From an uncultured Candidatus Saccharibacteria bacterium (GTDB taxonomy: Bacteria > Patescibacteriota > Minisyncoccia > Phycocordibacterales > Zambryskibacteraceae), in the NCBI GenBank assembly GCA_964384735.1, contig CAYLKX010000002.1:9381-34019 (forward strand): a DNA stretch of 24,639 bases, given 5' to 3'. The position numbers were made by a program, and so were the translations under genes. The notes beneath the pieces were generated by a model, which made no database searches, was not told the DNA's origin, and was given only the letters and a program-made list of their open reading frames with translations. Numbering within the stretch: the first letter of the stretch is position 1; each line of letters opens with the position of its first letter. This document shows, piece by piece, positions 145-24,639 of this stretch.

Positions 145-2124
145 ATGGCAGACAAGGCTAAAAAATCTGGCTCATACGGCGCTGACAGCATTACCGTCCT
201 CGAAGGGTTGGAGCCTGTCCGCAAACGCCCAGGCATGTACATCGGCACCACTGGTCCCGATGGTCTCCACCACCTCATTACCGAGATCTTCGACAACTCT
301 CGCGACGAGGCCATGGGTGGTCATGCCAATGACATTGAGATCGCCCTCCTCCCTCCGTTTAAGGCTGGCGAGCCAGCTCGCGTCCGCGTAACCGACAACG
401 GCCGTGGTATCCCTGTCGACGTCCACAAACAAACCAAGGTCTCAGCTCTTGAAATGGTTATGACCGTCCTCCACGCCGGAGGCAAGTTCGGTGGTGAAGA
501 TAGCGGTTACAAAGTCTCTGGCGGTCTCCACGGTGTGGGCGCCTCAGTAGTTAACGCCCTTTCCATGTATGCCAAGGCTGAGGTCCACCGCGACGGGGGA
601 GTCTATGCTCAGGAATATAATCAAGGTAAGAAGAAGAGCGCAGTAAAGAAGGTTGGTGGTAGCAAGGAGCACGGCACGATCATCACCTTCCAACCAGATC
701 CAGAGATCTTCCCAATCACTGACTTCAACTTCGAGCGCATCGTCAACCACATGCGCCAGCAAGCTTACTTGGTGAAGGGGACTCGCATCTCTGTTATCGA
801 CGCTCGTGAAGCTGGTAAGATTGATACAGATGACATCTTTTATATCCGTGAGCTTGGCCTTGATTTACCAAGCATGTCCTTCTACTTCGAGGGAGGCCTC
901 ATGTCTCTAGTCCGCTTCGAAAACGCTCACCAAAAGACTCTCCATCGCAACATCTTCTATGTAGAAAAGCCTGGCACCAAGGATGGTGAAATGGTCGAGA
1001 TCGCTCTCCAATACGTCGATGACACTTCCTCACGCATCTTGCCATTTGCCAACAATATTTATACAGCTGAGGGAGGCACCCATGTGACTGGTTTCAAAAC
1101 TACTCTTACTCGCTCACTCAACTCCTACTCAAGGAAGAATAATTTAGTGAGTGAAAAGGAGGACAACTTCACCGGTGATGACGTGCTTGAGGGTCTCACA
1201 GCGGTGATCTCGGTCAAACTCCGTGAGATCCAGTTCGAAGGCCAGACCAAGGGCAAACTTGGCTCCGTCGAGGCTCAGGGCATGGTCTCCGATGTCTTCG
1301 GCGAAGCTTTTGCCACCTTCTTGGAAGAGAACCCAGACGACGCTCGCGCCATGGTGCAAAAGTCTCTCCTCGCTCTCAAGGCTAGGAAGGCGGCTAAAGC
1401 GGCCAAGGACTCAATCCTCCGCAAGGGTGCTCTTGAGGGCATGACCTTGCCGGGCAAGTTGGCAGACTGTCAGTCTCGCTCAGCAGAGGAGAGCGAGCTC
1501 TTCATTGTGGAGGGAGACTCCGCCGGTGGCACTGCCAAGATGGGTCGCGACAGACGCATCCAAGCTATCCTCCCACTCCGTGGCAAAATTTTAAATATTG
1601 AACGTGCTCGCCTCGACCGCCTGCTTGGTTCAGAACAAATCAAGAACTTGGTGATTGCCCTCGGCACCGCCATTGGTGACACCTTCGACATTACCAAACT
1701 CCGCTACCACAAGATCATCATCGCCTCCGATGCCGATGTGGACGGAGCACACATTCGCACTCTCTTCCTCACCCTGATGTATCGCTACTTCCGCCCGCTC
1801 ATTGATGCTGGATACGTTTACATTGCTCAACCACCACTCTACAAGATCAAGAAGGGGAAGGAGGTCCACTACGCTTATAGCGATGAAGAAAAGAATAAGA
1901 TCAAAGACGCTTCAGATATCCAACGTTATAAAGGTTTAGGAGAGATGAATGCCGAGGAACTATGGGAAACGACCATGGACCCAACGAAACGTGTTTTGAA
2001 ACTTGTAACGGTTGAAGACGCTCGCGATGCCGATCGCATCTTCGACATCCTCATGGGCACCGACGTCCCTTCCCGCAAGTCCTTCATCCAATCTCACGCC
2101 AAAGAAGCTTCATTGGATATTTAA
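145..2124 (+). CDS. gyrB: DNA gyrase subunit B
   Basis: YGADSITVLEGLEPVRKRPGMYIG, DNGRGIP, LHAGGKF, SGGLHGVG, TOPRIM VEGDSAGG/DADVDG, QRYKGLGEMN; 659 aa short form. Confidence 0.97.
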   Translation: MADKAKKSGSYGADSITVLEGLEPVRKRPGMYIGTTGPDGLHHLITEIFDNSRDEAMGGHANDIEIALLPPFKAGEPARVRVTDNGRGIPVDVHKQTKVSALEMVMTVLHAGGKFGGEDSGYKVSGGLHGVGASVVNALSMYAKAEVHRDGGVYAQEYNQGKKKSAVKKVGGSKEHGTIITFQPDPEIFPITDFNFERIVNHMRQQAYLVKGTRISVIDAREAGKIDTDDIFYIRELGLDLPSMSFYFEGGLMSLVRFENAHQKTLHRNIFYVEKPGTKDGEMVEIALQYVDDTSSRILPFANNIYTAEGGTHVTGFKTTLTRSLNSYSRKNNLVSEKEDNFTGDDVLEGLTAVISVKLREIQFEGQTKGKLGSVEAQGMVSDVFGEAFATFLEENPDDARAMVQKSLLALKARKAAKAAKDSILRKGALEGMTLPGKLADCQSRSAEESELFIVEGDSAGGTAKMGRDRRIQAILPLRGKILNIERARLDRLLGSEQIKNLVIALGTAIGDTFDITKLRYHKIIIASDADVDGAHIRTLFLTLMYRYFRPLIDAGYVYIAQPPLYKIKKGKEVHYAYSDEEKNKIKDASDIQRYKGLGEMNAEELWETTMDPTKRVLKLVTVEDARDADRIFDILMGTDVPSRKSFIQSHAKEASLDI

Positions 2125-3172: not shown

Positions 3173-3225
3173 AGCACCTTCACACACACCGCGTGGGCCA
3201 CACTGGCCCCGCGGTGATTCTTTTT
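3172..3225 (+). repeat. Cassette-boundary repeat R2
   Basis: Identical to R1 over 54 bp; begins at the TGA of paralog A. Confidence 0.9.
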
Positions 3226-8225: not shown

Positions 8226-8678
8226 TTACGCTAGGAGGGCATCCACAACCTCTTTGACCAAAGTGCCATCAACCTTGCCTTTGAGCTCCTTCATGACTGA
8301 GCCGGTGAATTGGCCGGCCTTGTCCTTGGTTGGAGCTTCGCTAGCGATCTTCGCTTTTACAAAAGTTTCAACCTCCTCTCGAGACATCTGAGCCGGGAGG
8401 TATGATTGGAGGACATTGAGCTCAGCTTGCTCGGACTCGGCCAAGTCGGCTCGGCCACCATTGGTAAATTGCTCAATACTATCCTTCCTCTGCTTCACAG
8501 CACGGGTGATGACGGTAAGAGCCTCATCGTCGGAGAGAGCCTCGTCTGGGCGCCTGCCCTTGGCGACAAGCTCGTTGGTAAAGGCGGACATAAGACCACG
8601 GATAACGGTTAACTTAACCTGATCCTTGGCCTTCATAGCGAGGATCATCTCGCCTTTGATATCTGTTTGTAGTGACAT
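8226..8678 (-). CDS. yqeY: GatB/YqeY domain protein
   Basis: AMKAKD, KQRKDSIEQF..GGRADLAE.E..EL.VL..YLP, GKVDG. Confidence 0.9.
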   Translation of the reverse strand: MSLQTDIKGEMILAMKAKDQVKLTVIRGLMSAFTNELVAKGRRPDEALSDDEALTVITRAVKQRKDSIEQFTNGGRADLAESEQAELNVLQSYLPAQMSREEVETFVKAKIASEAPTKDKAGQFTGSVMKELKGKVDGTLVKEVVDALLA

Positions 8679-17829: not shown

Positions 17830-18231
17830 ATGAATATAGCAGAGACCTTCAACTTTGACAAGGAGGGGAGGGTAGAGAGCAAGGGTAGGCAATGGGTGAG
17901 AAAGCTCTTCCTCAGCTTAGTCATCATCCTCACAGCAAGCCTCGCCTTTGCCATAGGGCGCCTTACCTCCTCCTCATCAAGTGCTCCCATTAAAGTTGAG
18001 TTAGACCCAAGCCTCACCAGCCAAACTGACCCATCACCTAAGGCTCTCCAAGCCTCCATAACAGCCCCTAGCCCAGATACGGTCTATGCCTCCAGTAAGG
18101 GCAAAAAGTACTACTACGAGGCCTGTAGTGGGCTTAAAAGGGTCTCCGAAACCAACAAAATCAGCTTCCCAAGTGCCCAGGTGGCCGAAGCCTCTGGCTA
18201 TACCCTCGCGGTGGGGTGCCAAAAGCCTTAA
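17830..18231 (+). CDS. Membrane-anchored protein with a C-terminal Ada-metal-binding-like small domain
   Basis: TM LVIILTASLAFAIG, Ser/Pro linker, YASSKGKKYYYEAC...AEASGYTLAVGC; TATAAT 7 nt before the ATG. Confidence 0.6.
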   Translation: MNIAETFNFDKEGRVESKGRQWVRKLFLSLVIILTASLAFAIGRLTSSSSSAPIKVELDPSLTSQTDPSPKALQASITAPSPDTVYASSKGKKYYYEACSGLKRVSETNKISFPSAQVAEASGYTLAVGCQKP

Positions 18232-18246
18232 AGTATTGCCCAATAT

Positions 18247-18264
18247 ATGGCTCTATAGAGCCAT
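18247..18264. other. Perfect 18-bp palindrome (terminator or operator)
   Basis: ATGGCTCTATAGAGCCAT. Confidence 0.5.
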
Positions 18265-18287
18265 TTTATAAAAACGAGACAATAAAA

Positions 18288-18321
18288 AGCCCTTGACATC
18301 AAGGGCTGGATATGCTAAGAT
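18288..18321 (+). promoter_or_regulatory. Strong promoter TTGACA-17-TAAGAT (TGn-extended) with a palindrome across the -35
   Basis: AGCCCTTGA-ca-TCAAGGGCT overlaps TTGACA at 18293-18298. Confidence 0.7.
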
Positions 18322-18437
18322 ATATATAAGTCAGCTAGAGCTGGCTTTTCATTTACTAGGAGGAGAAAGTTACGGTCACGGCGATCCTTGATTACTAGTT
18401 TATCCCACTGTTTATTCTTCAGTTATCAACTATTGGT

Positions 18438-18893
18438 TTGCTCTTCTCACTCTCATCTGGTGCGATGTCCGTTCTACCGGCCATGACTGCCACCGATACT
18501 GTAAGTCTTCCAGCTATTTCAGAGCCGAAGGAGGTGAGATCAGTAGACTACGGCCCGATTACTGACCCGAAGAACGTTGAGAAGTTCGTTAAGGACTACT
18601 TCGCCGACATCCCGCTTCTTGCGAAGATTGCGAGCTGTGAGTCCCATTACCGCCAGTACGACTCCAATGGAGAGGTGCTCCGTGGTAAGCAGAACTCTTA
18701 CGACCGCGGTGTGATGCAGATTAACATCTGGTATCACCAGGAGACTGCAGAGCAGATGGGCTTGAACTTGAACAAGATCGATGACAACGTCGCTTTCGCC
18801 CGATACCTTTATGAAAAGTTCGGCGCCAAGCCATGGGTCTCATCCTCACCTTGTTGGTCAAAGCCTTCTAACGCAGAAGTGGCTAAGAAATAA
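18438..18893 (+). CDS. Lysozyme-like / lytic transglycosylase (SLT-type) exported protein; start uncertain
   Basis: IASCES (catalytic ES), DRGVMQIN, NVAFARYLYEKFGAKPW. Confidence 0.75.
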   Translation: MLFSLSSGAMSVLPAMTATDTVSLPAISEPKEVRSVDYGPITDPKNVEKFVKDYFADIPLLAKIASCESHYRQYDSNGEVLRGKQNSYDRGVMQINIWYHQETAEQMGLNLNKIDDNVAFARYLYEKFGAKPWVSSSPCWSKPSNAEVAKK

Positions 18894-18910
18894 TCTTAGC
18901 TAAGGTCAAT

Positions 18911-18973
18911 AAACACAAAACCCGCCCACCCCCCCCCCTACTCAGACGGGGCAAGGTGGCGGGTTTTGTGTTT
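18911..18973 (+). terminator. Intrinsic terminator with a REP-like insert in its loop
   Basis: AAACACAAAACCCGCC ... GGCGGGTTTTGTGTTT. Confidence 0.75.
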
Positions 18974-19034
18974 TACAAACTATTTATTTTTAAAATATTT
19001 AAGTTACAATTTTATAAGATCGCACAAAGGGGGA

Positions 19035-19268
19035 ATGAGATTGCGTAGAACACACTACTTTTCCAGCGCGAGACATGCTGAGGCCACCAGTAACTGGAGG
19101 CCGAAGTTTGATTCTGGTGACAAGATAGAGAACCTCAGCAACCACCACCGCGCCCGAGTAGTCGAGACACCTCGCCCTGGCTCCGATCATATTAGGGTGG
19201 AGGTGACTCGATGCAACCGCACCTACCGCACCTTCTGGGCCATCAATAATGTGCGCAAGCTCACCTAA
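19035..19268 (+). CDS. Hypothetical small basic protein (77 aa)
   Basis: AAAGGGGG SD before the ATG; downstream hairpin at 19270-19303. Confidence 0.55.
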   Translation: MRLRRTHYFSSARHAEATSNWRPKFDSGDKIENLSNHHRARVVETPRPGSDHIRVEVTRCNRTYRTFWAINNVRKLT

Positions 19269-19269
19269 A

Positions 19270-19303
19270 CTGCTCCGACCTCGCCATGCGATCGTCGGAG
19301 CAG
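19270..19303. terminator. Hairpin between convergent genes
   Basis: CTGCTCCGAC/GTCGGAGCAG 10-bp stem with inner TCGC-cat-GCGA. Confidence 0.6.
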
Positions 19304-19323
19304 AACTATTTTTAATCCTCCAT

Positions 19324-20304
19324 TTAATCCTTCAATGGGTGGAAGTCTTTGTGCGTCTTCTCCGCATATTTGTCTGAAGCGTGAACGTAACGAGTAGTGG
19401 TATCAAGTGACTCGTGGCCGAGGAGGATCTGGATCGCCGCTGGGTTGGCCCCAGACTCAGCCAAGTAGGTGGCAAAGCCGTGGCGCAAGGAGTGCGCCGA
19501 GGTTGGCACATTGATCCCCAAAATTTCCCTATACTGCTTGATCTTCATTTGTAAGTAATTGGGCGAGATATGCTTCGTCTTATCCTTCATATTGAGCCCT
19601 TGAGTCGCCACAAAGAGGTATGGATACTCATCGGTCCGCTCTTTAAGATAATTATCAATATGCTTCTTGGCTCTATCAGTAAGGTAGATGAAGCGTTGCT
19701 TCTTGCCCTTACCTTGGATGAAGATTCGACCAGACTTGTCGAGTTGAGCCCTTTTAAGATTAATTAATTCCGAAATACGCATACCGGAGGCAAACAAGGT
19801 CTCGAGCATGGCCCGATTCCTCAAAGCGACCAATTTCTCCTTCTCAATCTTGGTTGGAAACTCAATCAACTTCTTAAGCTCTTCCATCTCAGCAACTTGT
19901 TTGTGCTTCTTCTCCATCCTGAGGAGCTTAATCGAGCCTGGCACGACCGGCACCTCTTCATCCATATCAATTAAGTATTGTAAGTATCGTCTAAGTGAGG
20001 TCAGGATTCGGTTGATCGAACCTGACTTAAGATCCTGCATAGTGGCCGAGCCCTTGGCCGTGCGCCTGTCACTTGAGTTGAGGTAAGCCTTAAACTGCTC
20101 AATGGTCCGCTTGGTGGCTGATTTGAATTCCAAATCCATTTCTTTTTTTAAAAAGTGAGCAAAGGTCTCCAAGTCGCGCTCATAGTTGTAGGCCGTCTCG
20201 GGGGAGTAGTTATTGGCCCGAATAAATAAAAGGAAATCATCTAAGTAAGGCAAAGTGTCTGGGGTAGAGGACTCGAGCTTGGGATTGAAGCGTGGTCTAG
20301 GCAT
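19324..20304 (-). CDS. Xer-family tyrosine recombinase (XerC/D-like)
   Basis: N-terminal core-binding domain; RNRAMLETLFASGMRISEL, GKGKKQR, HSLRHGFAT, LGH..LDTTTRY; full R-K-H-R-H-Y set. Confidence 0.92.
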   Translation of the reverse strand: MPRPRFNPKLESSTPDTLPYLDDFLLFIRANNYSPETAYNYERDLETFAHFLKKEMDLEFKSATKRTIEQFKAYLNSSDRRTAKGSATMQDLKSGSINRILTSLRRYLQYLIDMDEEVPVVPGSIKLLRMEKKHKQVAEMEELKKLIEFPTKIEKEKLVALRNRAMLETLFASGMRISELINLKRAQLDKSGRIFIQGKGKKQRFIYLTDRAKKHIDNYLKERTDEYPYLFVATQGLNMKDKTKHISPNYLQMKIKQYREILGINVPTSAHSLRHGFATYLAESGANPAAIQILLGHESLDTTTRYVHASDKYAEKTHKDFHPLKD

Positions 20305-20335
20305 CTTGGTTTAGCTTGGTTTATTTATAGTAGGG

Positions 20336-20363
20336 ACTGAGTATAATATCTCTAACACTCAGT
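20336..20363. promoter_or_regulatory. Candidate dif-like Xer site or xer operator (11-6-11)
   Basis: ACTGAGTATAA-TATCTC-TAACACTCAGT; arms match 9/11 as inverted repeats. Confidence 0.55.
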
Positions 20364-20401
20364 ATTATAGGCTATAAGGCCTGGGTCCAGCAATTAACTT
20401 G

Positions 20402-20410
20402 TGTGGATAA
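20402..20410 (-). promoter_or_regulatory. Consensus DnaA box
   Basis: TGTGGATAA is the reverse complement of TTATCCACA. Confidence 0.4.
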
Positions 20411-20692
20411 TTAAATCTGATTAATTCCCCCATTAATTGTTTTGATTTAATTCCCCTCCCTCTTTCCACACTACCTCTCTTCTACCAAAACTTATTGATT
20501 CAAAATTAATTCGGAATATTAATTAGGCACCACTCCCCCACAAAATTTTGGATCTCAGTAGGGGAGTTTTAGAAAAATGATTATTCAATCAAAGATGACC
20601 ACCATTTAAAAGTAAAATGCATCAATAAATATACTGGCACATAAATTGGCGCGAGTAAGAAGAAAAGGAAGTACTTCAACCACTTAGGCATA

Positions 20693-22105
20693 CTAGTGAA
20701 TATAATTCCAAAGAGTTACAACCAAGTCCTTGAGCCCGGCAAGCAAGGTCCAAAGGTAGGCCACGGCGTCTCGACCCTTGTCGGAAGACATCCAAGCGAA
20801 GATCGACCAGCCGAAGAAGTATTTGAGCGCCACAAGAGCCAGCAAGATAAGGATCAACATACCGATGAATCCCCCATTCTTACTCTGGTCATTCAAATCA
20901 GCTTTAAGTAGTTCGATTGCTTTATTAATTCTTTGCATAGATTTTTCTTTACCAATAATTTCTAAAAGGACCAACGGATCCGGTGAGGCCTTGGCACCCG
21001 TGAGAGCAAAGCGTACTGGCCAAAGCACGCTCCCACGGCCCACACCCTCAGCATACTCCATAAGCTTTTGGGCAACATCGGATGTTGAACAATTGCTGAT
21101 TATCTCTAGTGACTTTTCAAGGTGCTTGAGAGTAGCTTCTTTAGGATCGTTCTTCCATACCAAACCCTCCACCGCATACTCTGGCTCACCTGTCATATAA
21201 GGCTCACTCTCAATACTTTTAACCATAAGCATCCTTTGCTCCTCAGCTGGCAAGAGCTTGATGTGCTCCTTATTGACCCAATCGAGCTTCTTTGGGTCGA
21301 AGATGGCCCCACCCTTCTGCACCTTCTTAAGATCGAACTGTTCAATGAGCTCTTGCATAGTAAAGATCTCTTGCTCTGTGCCCGGATTCCAACCCAAGAG
21401 AGCGAGATAATTAACGATAGATTGGGGTAAGTATCCAGCGTTCTTAAAATCCCGAAGAGAGGTAGCGCCATGTCTAGCAGACATCTTCGAACGGTCTGAG
21501 CCAAGAATGAGTGGCAAGTGAGTGTACTGAGGCCTTTTAGCACCAATCGCTTCTTGAAGAAGAATCTGGCGAGGAGTATTGGAAATACCATCATCACCGC
21601 GAATAATATGCGTCACACCCATCTCATGGTCGTCCACCACAACTGTTAGATGGTATAATGGCTCATTGATATTGCGAGCAATTACAAAATCACCCAACTC
21701 GGTTGTATCAAAAGAAATTTCGCCTCTAATACCATCAGTAAAAGCAACGATCTTATTTGGGTTTTTAAATCTCACCACTTCCCTATTCTCTCCCTCAGTC
21801 TCATGAGAGATATAGGCTGTACCGTTATTTAACATTTTCTGAATATACTCCTTATAGACTTCAGTTCTCTCAGATTGCCTGAAGGGACCTCTGTCATAAG
21901 TTATACCGAGCCAAGACAGCGAATCAATAATGTCTTGTTCATACTCCTTCTTAGAACGCTCTTTGTCAGTATCCTCTAATCTAAAGACAATTTCTCCACC
22001 ATGGTGCTTAGCAAAAAGATAATTAAACAAAGCTGTTCTGGCTCGACCAATATGGAAAAAGCCAGTTGGTGAAGGAGGTATTCTAACTACAACTTTTTCT
22101 GACAT
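20693..22105 (-). CDS. gltX: Glutamyl-tRNA synthetase with an in-frame C-terminal membrane / prepilin-like extension
   Basis: PPSPTGFFHIG, RLEDTD, DDHEMGVTHIIRGDD, LALLGWNP, WPVRFALTG; start MSEKVVVR. Confidence 0.93.
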   Translation of the reverse strand: MSEKVVVRIPPSPTGFFHIGRARTALFNYLFAKHHGGEIVFRLEDTDKERSKKEYEQDIIDSLSWLGITYDRGPFRQSERTEVYKEYIQKMLNNGTAYISHETEGENREVVRFKNPNKIVAFTDGIRGEISFDTTELGDFVIARNINEPLYHLTVVVDDHEMGVTHIIRGDDGISNTPRQILLQEAIGAKRPQYTHLPLILGSDRSKMSARHGATSLRDFKNAGYLPQSIVNYLALLGWNPGTEQEIFTMQELIEQFDLKKVQKGGAIFDPKKLDWVNKEHIKLLPAEEQRMLMVKSIESEPYMTGEPEYAVEGLVWKNDPKEATLKHLEKSLEIISNCSTSDVAQKLMEYAEGVGRGSVLWPVRFALTGAKASPDPLVLLEIIGKEKSMQRINKAIELLKADLNDQSKNGGFIGMLILILLALVALKYFFGWSIFAWMSSDKGRDAVAYLWTLLAGLKDLVVTLWNYIH

Positions 22106-22106
22106 A

Positions 22107-23252
22107 TTATTTGGCAACCTCATGCTCGAGGGCGATCTTTAAAATTTCTTCAGCAATATTCTTAGAAGCTTCAGGTTTGAAGAAGTTTTTGTCAGCCTCC
22201 TTCATTTTGCCCCTCAACTCTTCGTCATCAATCAGGCGAGTGATCTCCGCCTGCAAAATGTTTGGCGTAAGATTGTCCTCCTCGATCACCTCGCACCCCC
22301 CTGCCCTAGCGAAGGCGAAGGCATTGGAATGTTGGTCATGACTCACCCGTTCATTAATCGGAATGATAATAGCTGGAATCTGCCAAGATGCAATCTCGAA
22401 GATGGCTGAGCCCGCTCGTGAGACCACGACACTCGCTACCCCTGCCGACATGCGAGTAGCGGAGGCGTTGAGGTAGTCGAAGGGTTTGTAACGATCCTTG
22501 TATTGAGAGTCATAAAGCACTGCATCGGCAGTGGCCTTCACCTCGGCGAAATTTTTGGCCCCAGTTTGGTGAATAATGACGTAATGCTTGACCAACTCCT
22601 TGAGACATCCAAGCAAAGCCTCGTTGATCCTCTTGGCGCCTTGTGAGCCCCCCACTACCAAGATAACCGGCACACCCTCCTCAATCTTAAGGAACTCTCT
22701 AGCGCCATTTAAAATTGGTGTAGCAATTTCGGCTCTAATTGGCTGGCCAGTGTAAGCCGTCTTCTCTGGAGCGAAGTAGCGTCCAGCATCTTTGTAGGAA
22801 AGGGCCACTCTTTGAGCAAACTTCCCCGCCCACAAATTAACCTTGCCAGGCACTGAGTCTGACTCGTGGATCACCACGGGGATCCGCAAGATCCGAGCTG
22901 CGAGCAAGGCGGGGAAGCTCGCGTAACCTCCCTTGCCAAAGACGACATCGGGGTAAAGTTGGTAAACTTGGAAAATAGATTTCAACACTCCCCAACCAGT
23001 TTTGAAAAGGTCGAAAAGGTTTTTAAAAAGATTCAAAATTCCTGGTGAACGACGAATCTTACCAGCACTATTCTTCTTATACACAATACCTCGCTCATAG
23101 AGAGCGCCGGGATCATAGGGGGTAGGCGACATGAAGTAGAGCTCAAGCTCAAGAAGATGCTTCTCCTTAGCCAAGCGGGTAAGCTCCTCTGCTACAGAAA
23201 TAATTGGGTAAAAGTGACCCCCTGTCCCCCCGCCGGTAAATAAGATTCGCAT
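22107..23252 (-). CDS. murG: Lipid II GlcNAc transferase MurG
   Basis: GGGTGGHFYP, GKGGYASFP, GGSQGA, SRAGS, HDQHSNA. Confidence 0.95.
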   Translation of the reverse strand: MRILFTGGGTGGHFYPIISVAEELTRLAKEKHLLELELYFMSPTPYDPGALYERGIVYKKNSAGKIRRSPGILNLFKNLFDLFKTGWGVLKSIFQVYQLYPDVVFGKGGYASFPALLAARILRIPVVIHESDSVPGKVNLWAGKFAQRVALSYKDAGRYFAPEKTAYTGQPIRAEIATPILNGAREFLKIEEGVPVILVVGGSQGAKRINEALLGCLKELVKHYVIIHQTGAKNFAEVKATADAVLYDSQYKDRYKPFDYLNASATRMSAGVASVVVSRAGSAIFEIASWQIPAIIIPINERVSHDQHSNAFAFARAGGCEVIEEDNLTPNILQAEITRLIDDEELRGKMKEADKNFFKPEASKNIAEEILKIALEHEVAK

Positions 23253-24376: not shown

Positions 24377-24639
24377 CTATTTCAATACCAAATCGAAGTT
24401 GATGCGACCAATAATCTGCCCGCGAGGCGTCTTCACATCCACTCGCCAACGACCAGGGGTGAAGTTATATTTTGTCGAATAAGTGCGGAAGCCCTCTGCC
24501 CTACCCCCAGTGAGGTGAAGTGGGATCCGAGTGGCAGTGATCCACTCACCTTGATCATTTTGATACTGCCAATCATGATAAATATCTAAATTAATACTCC
24601 CCGGAGCGAAGATGGCTGTATAAGCATTGAGAGCCTCAC
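24377..24639 (-). CDS. DUF2914-like protein, C-terminal part (gene starts beyond the window)
   Basis: Translated by hand: ...AYTAIFAPG...YHDWQY...GGRAEGFRTYSTK...PGRWRVDVKTPRGQIIGRINF..LK*. Confidence 0.6.
   Translation of the reverse strand, partial: EALNAYTAIFAPGSINLDIYHDWQYQNDQGEWITATRIPLHLTGGRAEGFRTYSTKYNFTPGRWRVDVKTPRGQIIGRINFDLVLK

Follow-up and report, generated by a model that had tools for sequence, protein, structure and literature searches.

A probable chromosome dif site beside a lone Xer recombinase gene in a bacterium of the candidate phyla radiation

The window analyzed here, 24,639 nucleotides of contig CAYLKX010000002.1 from an uncultured Candidatus Saccharibacteria bacterium, carries a gene for a Xer-like tyrosine recombinase (xer) and, just upstream of it, a 28-bp palindromic element, ACTGAGTATAATATCTCTAACACTCAGT, at positions 20336–20363 of the plus strand. 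Comparison with related genomes makes it very probable that this element is the dif site of a chromosome of the Paceibacteria (Parcubacteria), at which dimers are resolved at the replication terminus, and that the adjacent gene encodes a single dedicated Xer recombinase, gene and site together forming a single-recombinase Xer/dif module. The element shows the properties from which earlier work predicted dif sites (PMC3025954, PMC1914069) and is read as a single-recombinase dif site on that ground. A chromosome-dimer-resolution site had been proposed here from the window alone (the original prediction), and the proposal is supported by conservation of the site at xer orthologs, by a switch in the polarity of oligomers at the site, by the presence of a single Xer and by the gamma domain of FtsK. 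A literature search found no paper that combines Xer/dif terms with the candidate phyla radiation (CPR), Patescibacteria or Parcubacteria, and a gene-plus-site xer/dif cassette has not previously been described for these bacteria.

The element and its flanks

The features of the window that bear on the module are the following.

19324–20304, minus strand: xer, 326 amino acids, Xer-like by Pfam, the sole tyrosine recombinase gene found in the genome
20336–20346, minus strand: arm of the dif-like site nearer to xer (xer-proximal), reading TTATACTCAGT in the minus strand, highly conserved, with TTATAC invariant
20347–20352, minus strand: 6-bp centre, GAGATA on the minus strand, presumed strand-exchange region, varying among loci
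20353–20363, minus strand: promoter-proximal arm, ACTGAGTGTTA on the minus strand, less conserved in the comparison of loci
20364–20369, minus strand: −10-like hexamer TATAAT abutting the site, from sequence and comparison of loci
20388–20393, minus strand: weak −35-like hexamer TTGCTG with an 18-bp spacer to the −10, from sequence and orthologs
20402–20410, minus strand: DnaA-box-like TTATCCACA, 38 bp upstream of the site, enriched at orthologous sites
17865–17872, plus strand: GGGGAGGG, an octamer of the FtsK-orienting polar sequence (KOPS) type, pointing to the site
22299–22306, minus strand: GGGCAGGG (minus-strand reading), pointing to the site
24499–24506, minus strand: GGGTAGGG (minus-strand reading), pointing to the site
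2067–2074, minus strand: GGGAAGGG (minus-strand reading), pointing away from the site

Read along the gene, on the minus strand, the element is ACTGAGTGTTA-GAGATA-TTATACTCAGT. Its coordinates and 11-6-11 pairing, with arms complementary at 9 of 11 positions, were reproduced from the sequence as originally described, and so was its placement, 31 bp before the ATG of xer and directly after a minus-strand TATAAT. This hexamer (ATTATA on the plus strand) abuts the 28-mer on the promoter side. Inverted repeats of 11-6-11 geometry with at least 9 of 11 matches occur nine times in the window and 116 times in the 360-kb genome, and shuffled sequence gives 3.0 ± 1.8 of them per window. The geometry, being only about three times commoner than in shuffles, was rejected as evidence by itself. 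Since it is within reach of chance, the case for the site must rest on comparison.

Site conservation and linkage with xer

In the window's GTDB genus, xer orthologs occur in five further genomes, four of them at 70–80% identity and the fifth, a fragment at a contig end, at 64%. The site lies upstream of xer in the same orientation in all five. A 24-bp core, TGAGTATTAGAGATATTATACTCA, is identical in these five relatives and has one A-to-G change in the window, while around it the intergenic DNA aligns poorly and the upstream genes and synteny differ. A wider sample comprises about 70 xer orthologs of 52–83% amino-acid identity from genome and metagenome contigs. These loci were fetched by protein and not by site, so the sampling is unbiased as regards the site. 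Conservation upstream of xer orthologs, as expected for a functional site in the original prediction, was found in 46 non-redundant Paceibacteria loci that have enough upstream DNA, the site usually lying 3–140 bp from the start of the match.

All 24 distinct site sequences, which come from 47 loci, keep the 11-6-11 geometry. The TTATAC of the inner xer-proximal arm is invariant among them. The opposite, promoter-proximal arm is less conserved, with variable positions 2, 8, 10 and 11. The centre appears as GAGATA, GAGTTA, GAGTGA, GAGTAA, GGGATA or TGGATA, and site positions 13, 15 and 16 vary. The outer positions show palindromic covariation (ACCGAG...CTCGGT, ATCGAG...CTCGAT): pair 3/26 changes from T.A to C.G, and pair 2/27 is found as C.G, G.C and T.A. 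In a deeper clade (52–65% identity) the site is inverted relative to xer, yet still adjacent to it. This pattern of variation fits a recombinase core site.

The window's genome (G000) holds a single copy, the next best match having 6 mismatches in 24 positions, and one copy is likewise present in each of five relatives with long contigs (G053–G057). Across the order, 10 of 401 sampled genomes are positive, each with one copy, and a reversed control pattern gave zero matches. The distribution of this site, here called type A, is patchy, the ten genomes being spread over at least six families. In one relative, G052 (contig C1; locus L094, 2290–2990), an open reading frame (ORF) of 154 amino acids is inserted on the opposite strand, 2–3 nt past the conserved arm of the site. 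It has a GGAGG Shine-Dalgarno sequence and a signal-peptide-like N-terminus, and the distance between site and xer is about 720 bp. The site and its promoter-like flank are intact despite the insertion, and xer has another TATAAT there.

The Xer protein and its partner genes

The window lies in a 34-kb contig of a 360-kb metagenome-assembled genome (MAG) of 42 contigs and 88% completeness. The xer ORF contains the Pfam domain Phage_integrase (PF00589, E 6e-34) and an N-terminal SAM-like domain (PF02899). Its NCBIfam scores are 192 bits for XerC, 189 for XerD and 171 for XerA, all under the curated cut-offs. The nearest solved structure is XerD (1a0p, E 2.5e-24), and XerH (5jjv) is a weaker match (E 2e-15). 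The R, K, HxxR, H and Y motifs of the protein align with XerD 1a0p, where ASGMRISEL, GKGKKQR, HSLRHGFAT, LGHESL and RYVH pair with the segments of the catalytic residues.

One PF00589 gene each is present in the window's genome, in G042 (96% complete, two contigs) and in G051, and G052 has two further PF00589 genes, both on a small contig. The search for PF00589 found neither a second Xer nor a canonical XerC/XerD pair in the window's genome or in G042, in agreement with the single recombinase originally proposed. All five genomes tested encode FtsK, and that of the window's genome comprises 4TM, alpha, motor and gamma domains, FtsK_gamma scoring 94 bits.

The site lies at a switch in oligomer polarity

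The window's genome is too fragmented for genome-wide mapping, and relatives with long contigs were therefore used. In G042, represented by a 464-kb contig of 483 kb, the site lies at 203.2 kb and dnaA at 407 kb, and the cumulative GC skew shows a plateau at 181–220 kb with its peak at 213 kb. The KOPS-type octamer GGGNAGGG occurs there 26 times on the plus and 4 times on the minus strand of the left replichore, 7 and 22 times on those of the right, and the best-split interval, 203150–204549, contains the site. The corresponding counts in G052 are 17 and 5, then 6 and 26, with a best-split interval of 270694–274220 that also contains the site (273938–273961).

To avoid circularity, the training of polar 7-mers and 8-mers used only DNA at a distance of over about 65 kb from the site and was also carried out across genomes. 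With cross-trained 7-mers, the polarity changes at 203150–203305 in G042, that is at the site, and at 272.1 kb in G052, 1.8 kb off. Jointly trained word sets switch at 202.5–203.3 kb and at about 271–271.6 kb, respectively, and with cross-trained 8-mers the switch is off the site by 6.5 kb in G042 and by 9 kb in G052. Five more genomes, G053–G057, were picked solely for their long contigs and scanned with 7-mers trained on the distant regions of G042 and G052.

G053: 21 of 22 GGGNAGGG octamers toward the site; the 7-mer switch interval (115–880 bp) contains the site
G054: 13 of 13 toward the site; the 7-mer switch interval (115–880 bp) contains the site
G055: 11 of 14 toward the site; the 7-mer switch interval (115–880 bp) contains the site
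G056: 23 of 23 toward the site; the 7-mer switch interval (115–880 bp) contains the site
G057: 10 of 11 toward the site; the 7-mer switch lies 1.3 kb from the site

In each of these five genomes, the site falls within the best GGGNAGGG interval. According to GGGNAGGG and the 7-mer sets, the polarity switch falls at the site or at most 3 kb away in seven relatives, often narrowed to about 150 bp, and likewise in the window's contig, where the 7-mers switch at 17864–20452; the 8-mers switch there at 18209–18401. The window's contig has four GGGNAGGG octamers. The three that had been reported as pointing to the site (17865, plus strand; 22299 and 24499, minus strand) do so; a fourth, at 2067 of the minus strand, had been missed and points away.

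The pooled count of GGGNAGGG is 170 on the leading and 26 on the lagging strand, which places it at rank 16–18 among 47,848 one-N octamer families. In the pooled contigs of G042, G052 and G053–G057, the most polar families are GNAGGGGA (232 against 21, the top rank) and ANAGGGAA (246 against 30). Both share NAGGG with the KOPS of E. coli and the SpoIIIE recognition sequence (SRS) of B. subtilis and are candidates for the FtsK guide words of these genomes. Toward the site point 87% of the motifs and 70% of the gene proxies. Motif polarity is kept on template strands (36 against 12) and in intergenic DNA (29 against 6), and these counts rule out word polarity as a by-product of gene orientation. 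In the Kaiserbacteria MAGs G054 and G055 (contig C2 in each), GC skew and the polarity of G-rich oligomers conflict over about 85–100 kb by the site, so that oligomer polarity is no simple by-product of base skew.

The DnaA-box-like motif raised the question of an origin in place of a terminus. An origin was rejected, as the G-rich words point toward the site. In G042, dnaA at 407 kb is near the rise of the skew that follows a local minimum of the cumulative skew at about 375 kb, in the half opposite the site. In G052, dnaA is found at the skew minimum of contig C2, which is separate from the contig of the site.

Promoter overlap and a DnaA-box-like motif

Among 43 loci, −10-like hexamers that end 0–3 nt before the site amount to 37 positions summed over these four offsets, and any other offset has 0–5. 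Promoters that agree with the consensus at 9 or more of 12 positions were found at 17 of the 43 loci, with both site orientations, and at 2 of 43 with a control anchor. An aligned −35, TTGnCn, is conserved in the six genus-level orthologous loci. The promoter of xer in the window escaped the consensus scanner, its −35 matching at only 3 of 6 positions; its assignment rests on the perfect −10 and on the comparison of loci. Because the −10 abuts the site, a bound recombinase would cover the transcription start. Autoregulation of xer by site occupancy, that is repression through promoter overlap, is suggested by this arrangement, and we rate it at slightly below an even chance. The insertion in G052, with a separate TATAAT for xer, indicates that the promoter overlap is dispensable.

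In 26 of 46 loci, a TTATCCACA-like box with at most one mismatch lies no more than 100 bp from the site; both orientations and both sides of the site are represented. The density of such boxes is 3.14 per kb near the site and 0.31 per kb in the flanks, a tenfold difference. The motif further accompanies the type-B1 site and, in L222 (about 8355–8363), a phage copy of the site, both described below.

Exchange of the cassette within one genus

The type-A xer of the window is found in 6 of the 37 genomes of the genus. In the 31 others, another xer, where found, is only about 30–37% identical to that of the window. DnaB is at least 79% identical across the genus in nearly all full-length matches, and two matches are at 71–72%. 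Six of these 31 (loci L022, L023, L026, L028, L029 and L030) have a non-orthologous xer in the same slot with o151-o149-o90 downstream, and in two of them, those with a long enough fetched flank, the small ORF upstream is seen as well. The alternative xer has a conserved 11-6-11-like block of its own (type B1), (A)CTTCGTTTTA-CATATA-TTGTGCGAAGG, in the conserved context cTTATCCACA-N9-(A)CTTCGTTTTA-CATATA-TTGTGCGAAGG. In G020, the polarity switch (146248–146475) and the GC-skew peak (146 kb) fall on this alternative block (contig C1, 146420–146450). The xer/dif cassette thus appears to have been exchanged in situ at the terminus.

Copies of the site in tailed phages

Three groups of tailed-phage contigs from IMG/VR, with terminase, portal, head and primase genes, carry the site with perfectly symmetric arms and other centres. 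The copies lie 250–800 bp from terminase genes.

L222, 8417–8444, and four near-identical contigs (L220, L221, L225 and L232): ACTGAGTATAA-TGGTCA-TTATACTCAGT
L233, 13303–13330: centre TAGTCA
L230, 8918–8945: ATCGAGTATAA-GAGTAA-TTATACTCGAT, with arms matching the chromosomal variant of L152 and L155

These copies independently suggest the 28-mer as a recombination target. No tyrosine (PF00589) or serine (PF00239) recombinase was found in the five phage records searched, which are 24–81% complete, and none of the 401 genomes contains an integrated phage flanked by two sites. Seven further viral matches (L223, L224, L226–L229 and L231) were discarded as chance, their outer arms being non-palindromic; in the three that were checked (L224, L227 and L229) the site-like match lies inside an ORF. 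The phage copies resemble integrative mobile elements exploiting Xer (IMEX), and their carriers are candidate Xer-exploiting phages of Paceibacteria.

A broader picture may be drawn from these observations, which we offer as speculative and consider unlikely to hold in full. Here the xer-dif pair of Paceibacteria would be a self-contained, exchangeable terminus cassette with at least two non-orthologous versions for one slot in one genus. The DnaA box that comes with each version may tie the expression of xer, or the use of the site, to the state of replication, and integrase-less tailed phages would carry symmetric mimics of the site, relying on the Xer of the host for integration or for the resolution of their own multimers. 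If true, the phages would represent a tailed-phage class of IMEX in CPR.

Other features near the module

A small ORF encoding 36 hydrophobic amino acids (20581–20691, minus strand) begins 1 nt past the stop of gltX and is kept in relatives at 55–78% identity by tblastn. Downstream of it is a conserved hairpin, ACTCCCC...GGGGAGT (20532–20567), without a T tract. A search of 20250–20750 against Rfam returned no RNA family at E up to 1. The inverted-repeat scan also located two identical GC-rich 28-bp palindromes (ACCGCGTGGGCC...GGCCCCGCGGT) at 2441–2468 and 3188–3215.

Comparison with known Xer systems

The module can be compared with XerS/difSL of streptococci and lactococci, in which one recombinase acts at a site immediately upstream of its gene in a terminus module, with FtsK present (PMC1914069, PMC5357621). 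Autoregulation of xerS through promoter overlap has already been speculated, and acquisition of this self-contained module was proposed to have replaced XerCD (PMC1914069). The single recombinase, the joining of gene and site in one module at the terminus and the presence of FtsK are shared with the window. However, difSL is 31 bp long with an 11-bp centre and unequal arms, whereas the site here is 28 bp with 11-6-11 geometry. The window Xer scores only 88 bits on the XerS equivalog (cut-off 267) and has 326 residues rather than 356. The polar word of L. lactis, GAAGAAG, is A-rich (PMC3384302), and the polar words here are G-rich. In Helicobacter and Campylobacter, a single XerH acts on a near-palindromic, gene-linked difH, with a homotetramer assembled across two sites (PMC5357621). 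In difH, both the arms (AGTTATGAAAA and AAAAGTTTGA) and the centre are unlike those of the window site.

The canonical XerC/XerD systems of E. coli and B. subtilis share with the module a 28-bp 11-6-11 site with one arm much better conserved, a terminus position, converging words of the GGGNAGGG type and the gamma domain of FtsK, and XerC and XerD are the best family and structure matches of the window Xer. At the boundary between centre and arm, the consensus has the same A-TTAT junction as the dif of E. coli, B. subtilis and Frankia (PMC3025954), and about 16 of 28 positions match by inspection. In contrast to these systems, there is one recombinase gene, it adjoins the site and the arms are nearly symmetric. 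The equivalog cut-offs are missed by far as well (192 against 335 bits for XerC, 189 against 330 for XerD). Archaeal XerA/dif is similar in resolving dimers with a single recombinase, but the proteins belong to different lineages, the XerA equivalog (NF040815) giving 171 bits against a cut-off of 220. By these scores the window Xer is nearer to XerC/XerD than to XerS or XerH, yet it is below every equivalog threshold. Legionellales have a further single-recombinase system, XerL/dif, whose dif was revealed by the mobile element LME-1 carrying a dif mimic (PMC9765430). The LME-1 mimic of Legionella parallels the phage copies found here.

Alternative explanations

The palindrome could serve xer purely as a transcriptional operator to which Xer or another dimeric regulator binds, with no part in recombination, its place at the terminus following from the location of xer. 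This is very unlikely. The −10-like hexamer does abut the site in most loci whatever the site orientation, consensus-like promoters are in excess over the control anchor as given above, and the predicted transcription start is inside the first arm. However, G052 keeps the site and its flank although the 154-aa gene separates the site from xer, which has its own TATAAT, and on the phage contigs the site is kept where no xer follows. An operator also gives no reason for polar words to converge within about 150 bp. The half-site centres are about 17 bp apart across the 6-bp centre, a spacing that fits core sites of tyrosine recombinases better than helix-turn-helix operators. A 5'-terminal hairpin of the xer mRNA, serving stability or translational control, is very unlikely. 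The element would fold into a 9-bp stem of −9.9 kcal/mol with conserved arms and a variable 'loop', but the z-score reaches only −1.6, with an equally good fold in 12 of 200 shuffles. The sequence of the arms, beyond their pairing, is kept across orthologs of 52–83% identity. Positions 10/19 form a conserved T-T mismatch, and in the inverted clade the frequent G-T at 8/21 would become an A-C mismatch in the RNA. The transcription start is probably within the first arm, and a hairpin leaves the terminus position and the phage copies unexplained.

Another explanation takes xer and the site as the integrase and attachment (int/att) module of a resident mobile element, dimer resolution being achieved otherwise or absent. 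The patchy cassette (6 of 37 genus genomes, 10 of 401 in the order), its in-situ replacement by a non-orthologous xer with another site and a lower GC content across 19.5–22 kb of the window are in its favor. However, xer is the only tyrosine recombinase in genomes of 360–480 kb, the flanks contain no element cargo or second att copy and consist of housekeeping genes in conserved order, and the alternative cassette likewise sits at a polarity switch. XerS/difSL, too, has been described as self-contained and as having replaced XerCD (PMC1914069), and mobility of the cassette is compatible with dif function. We consider this explanation very unlikely.

Several points weigh against the reading of the element as dif. 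The case for dif function is comparative throughout, and the palindrome, as the start of the predicted xer transcript, may have an additional RNA or operator role. The fragmentation of the window's genome, 42 contigs at 88% completeness, leaves room for a second recombinase on missing DNA, and its own terminus cannot be mapped genome-wide. Because many G-rich words are polar and GGGNAGGG is not the top one, GGGNAGGG is a candidate FtsK recognition word. A terminus at this position had been expected to appear in the GC skew. The skew shows no sign change at the site in the window, and the extremum of the cumulative skew lies 47 kb from the site in G052, about 100 kb in G054 and about 85 kb in G055, the last two in the fetched parts only. 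It is 1–14 kb from the site in G042, G053, G056 and G057. Since mononucleotide skew is inconsistent among relatives, polar words with non-circular training were relied on, and these place the expected terminus at or near the site in the seven relatives and the window's contig.

Proposed mechanism

With the element as a single-recombinase dif site, the mechanism may be modelled on XerS/difSL, XerH/difH and XerCD/dif. Two Xer protomers would occupy the two arms of 11 bp. Septal FtsK would be oriented by G-rich polar words of the GGGNAGGG or GNAGGGGA type that converge on the site, join the two dif copies of a dimeric chromosome and activate recombination. Strand exchange at the borders of the 6-bp centre would then resolve the dimer. 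Binding of Xer, the positions of cleavage and the dependence on FtsK are taken here from the known systems and are to be read as predictions for this site.

Significance

The 28-mer and the 326-aa protein make up a compact system that is readily tested in vitro. The swap of two cassettes within one genus would be a clean natural case of module replacement, earlier inferred only for whole families such as XerS, and the phage-borne mimics may serve as a marker that links CPR phages to their hosts. FtsK-type polar words like GGGNAGGG extend into CPR. For these uncultured bacteria with minimal genomes, whose chromosome biology is little known, the module supplies a probable sequence-defined terminus and dimer-resolution site, and the site could anchor genome finishing and replichore analysis of their MAGs.

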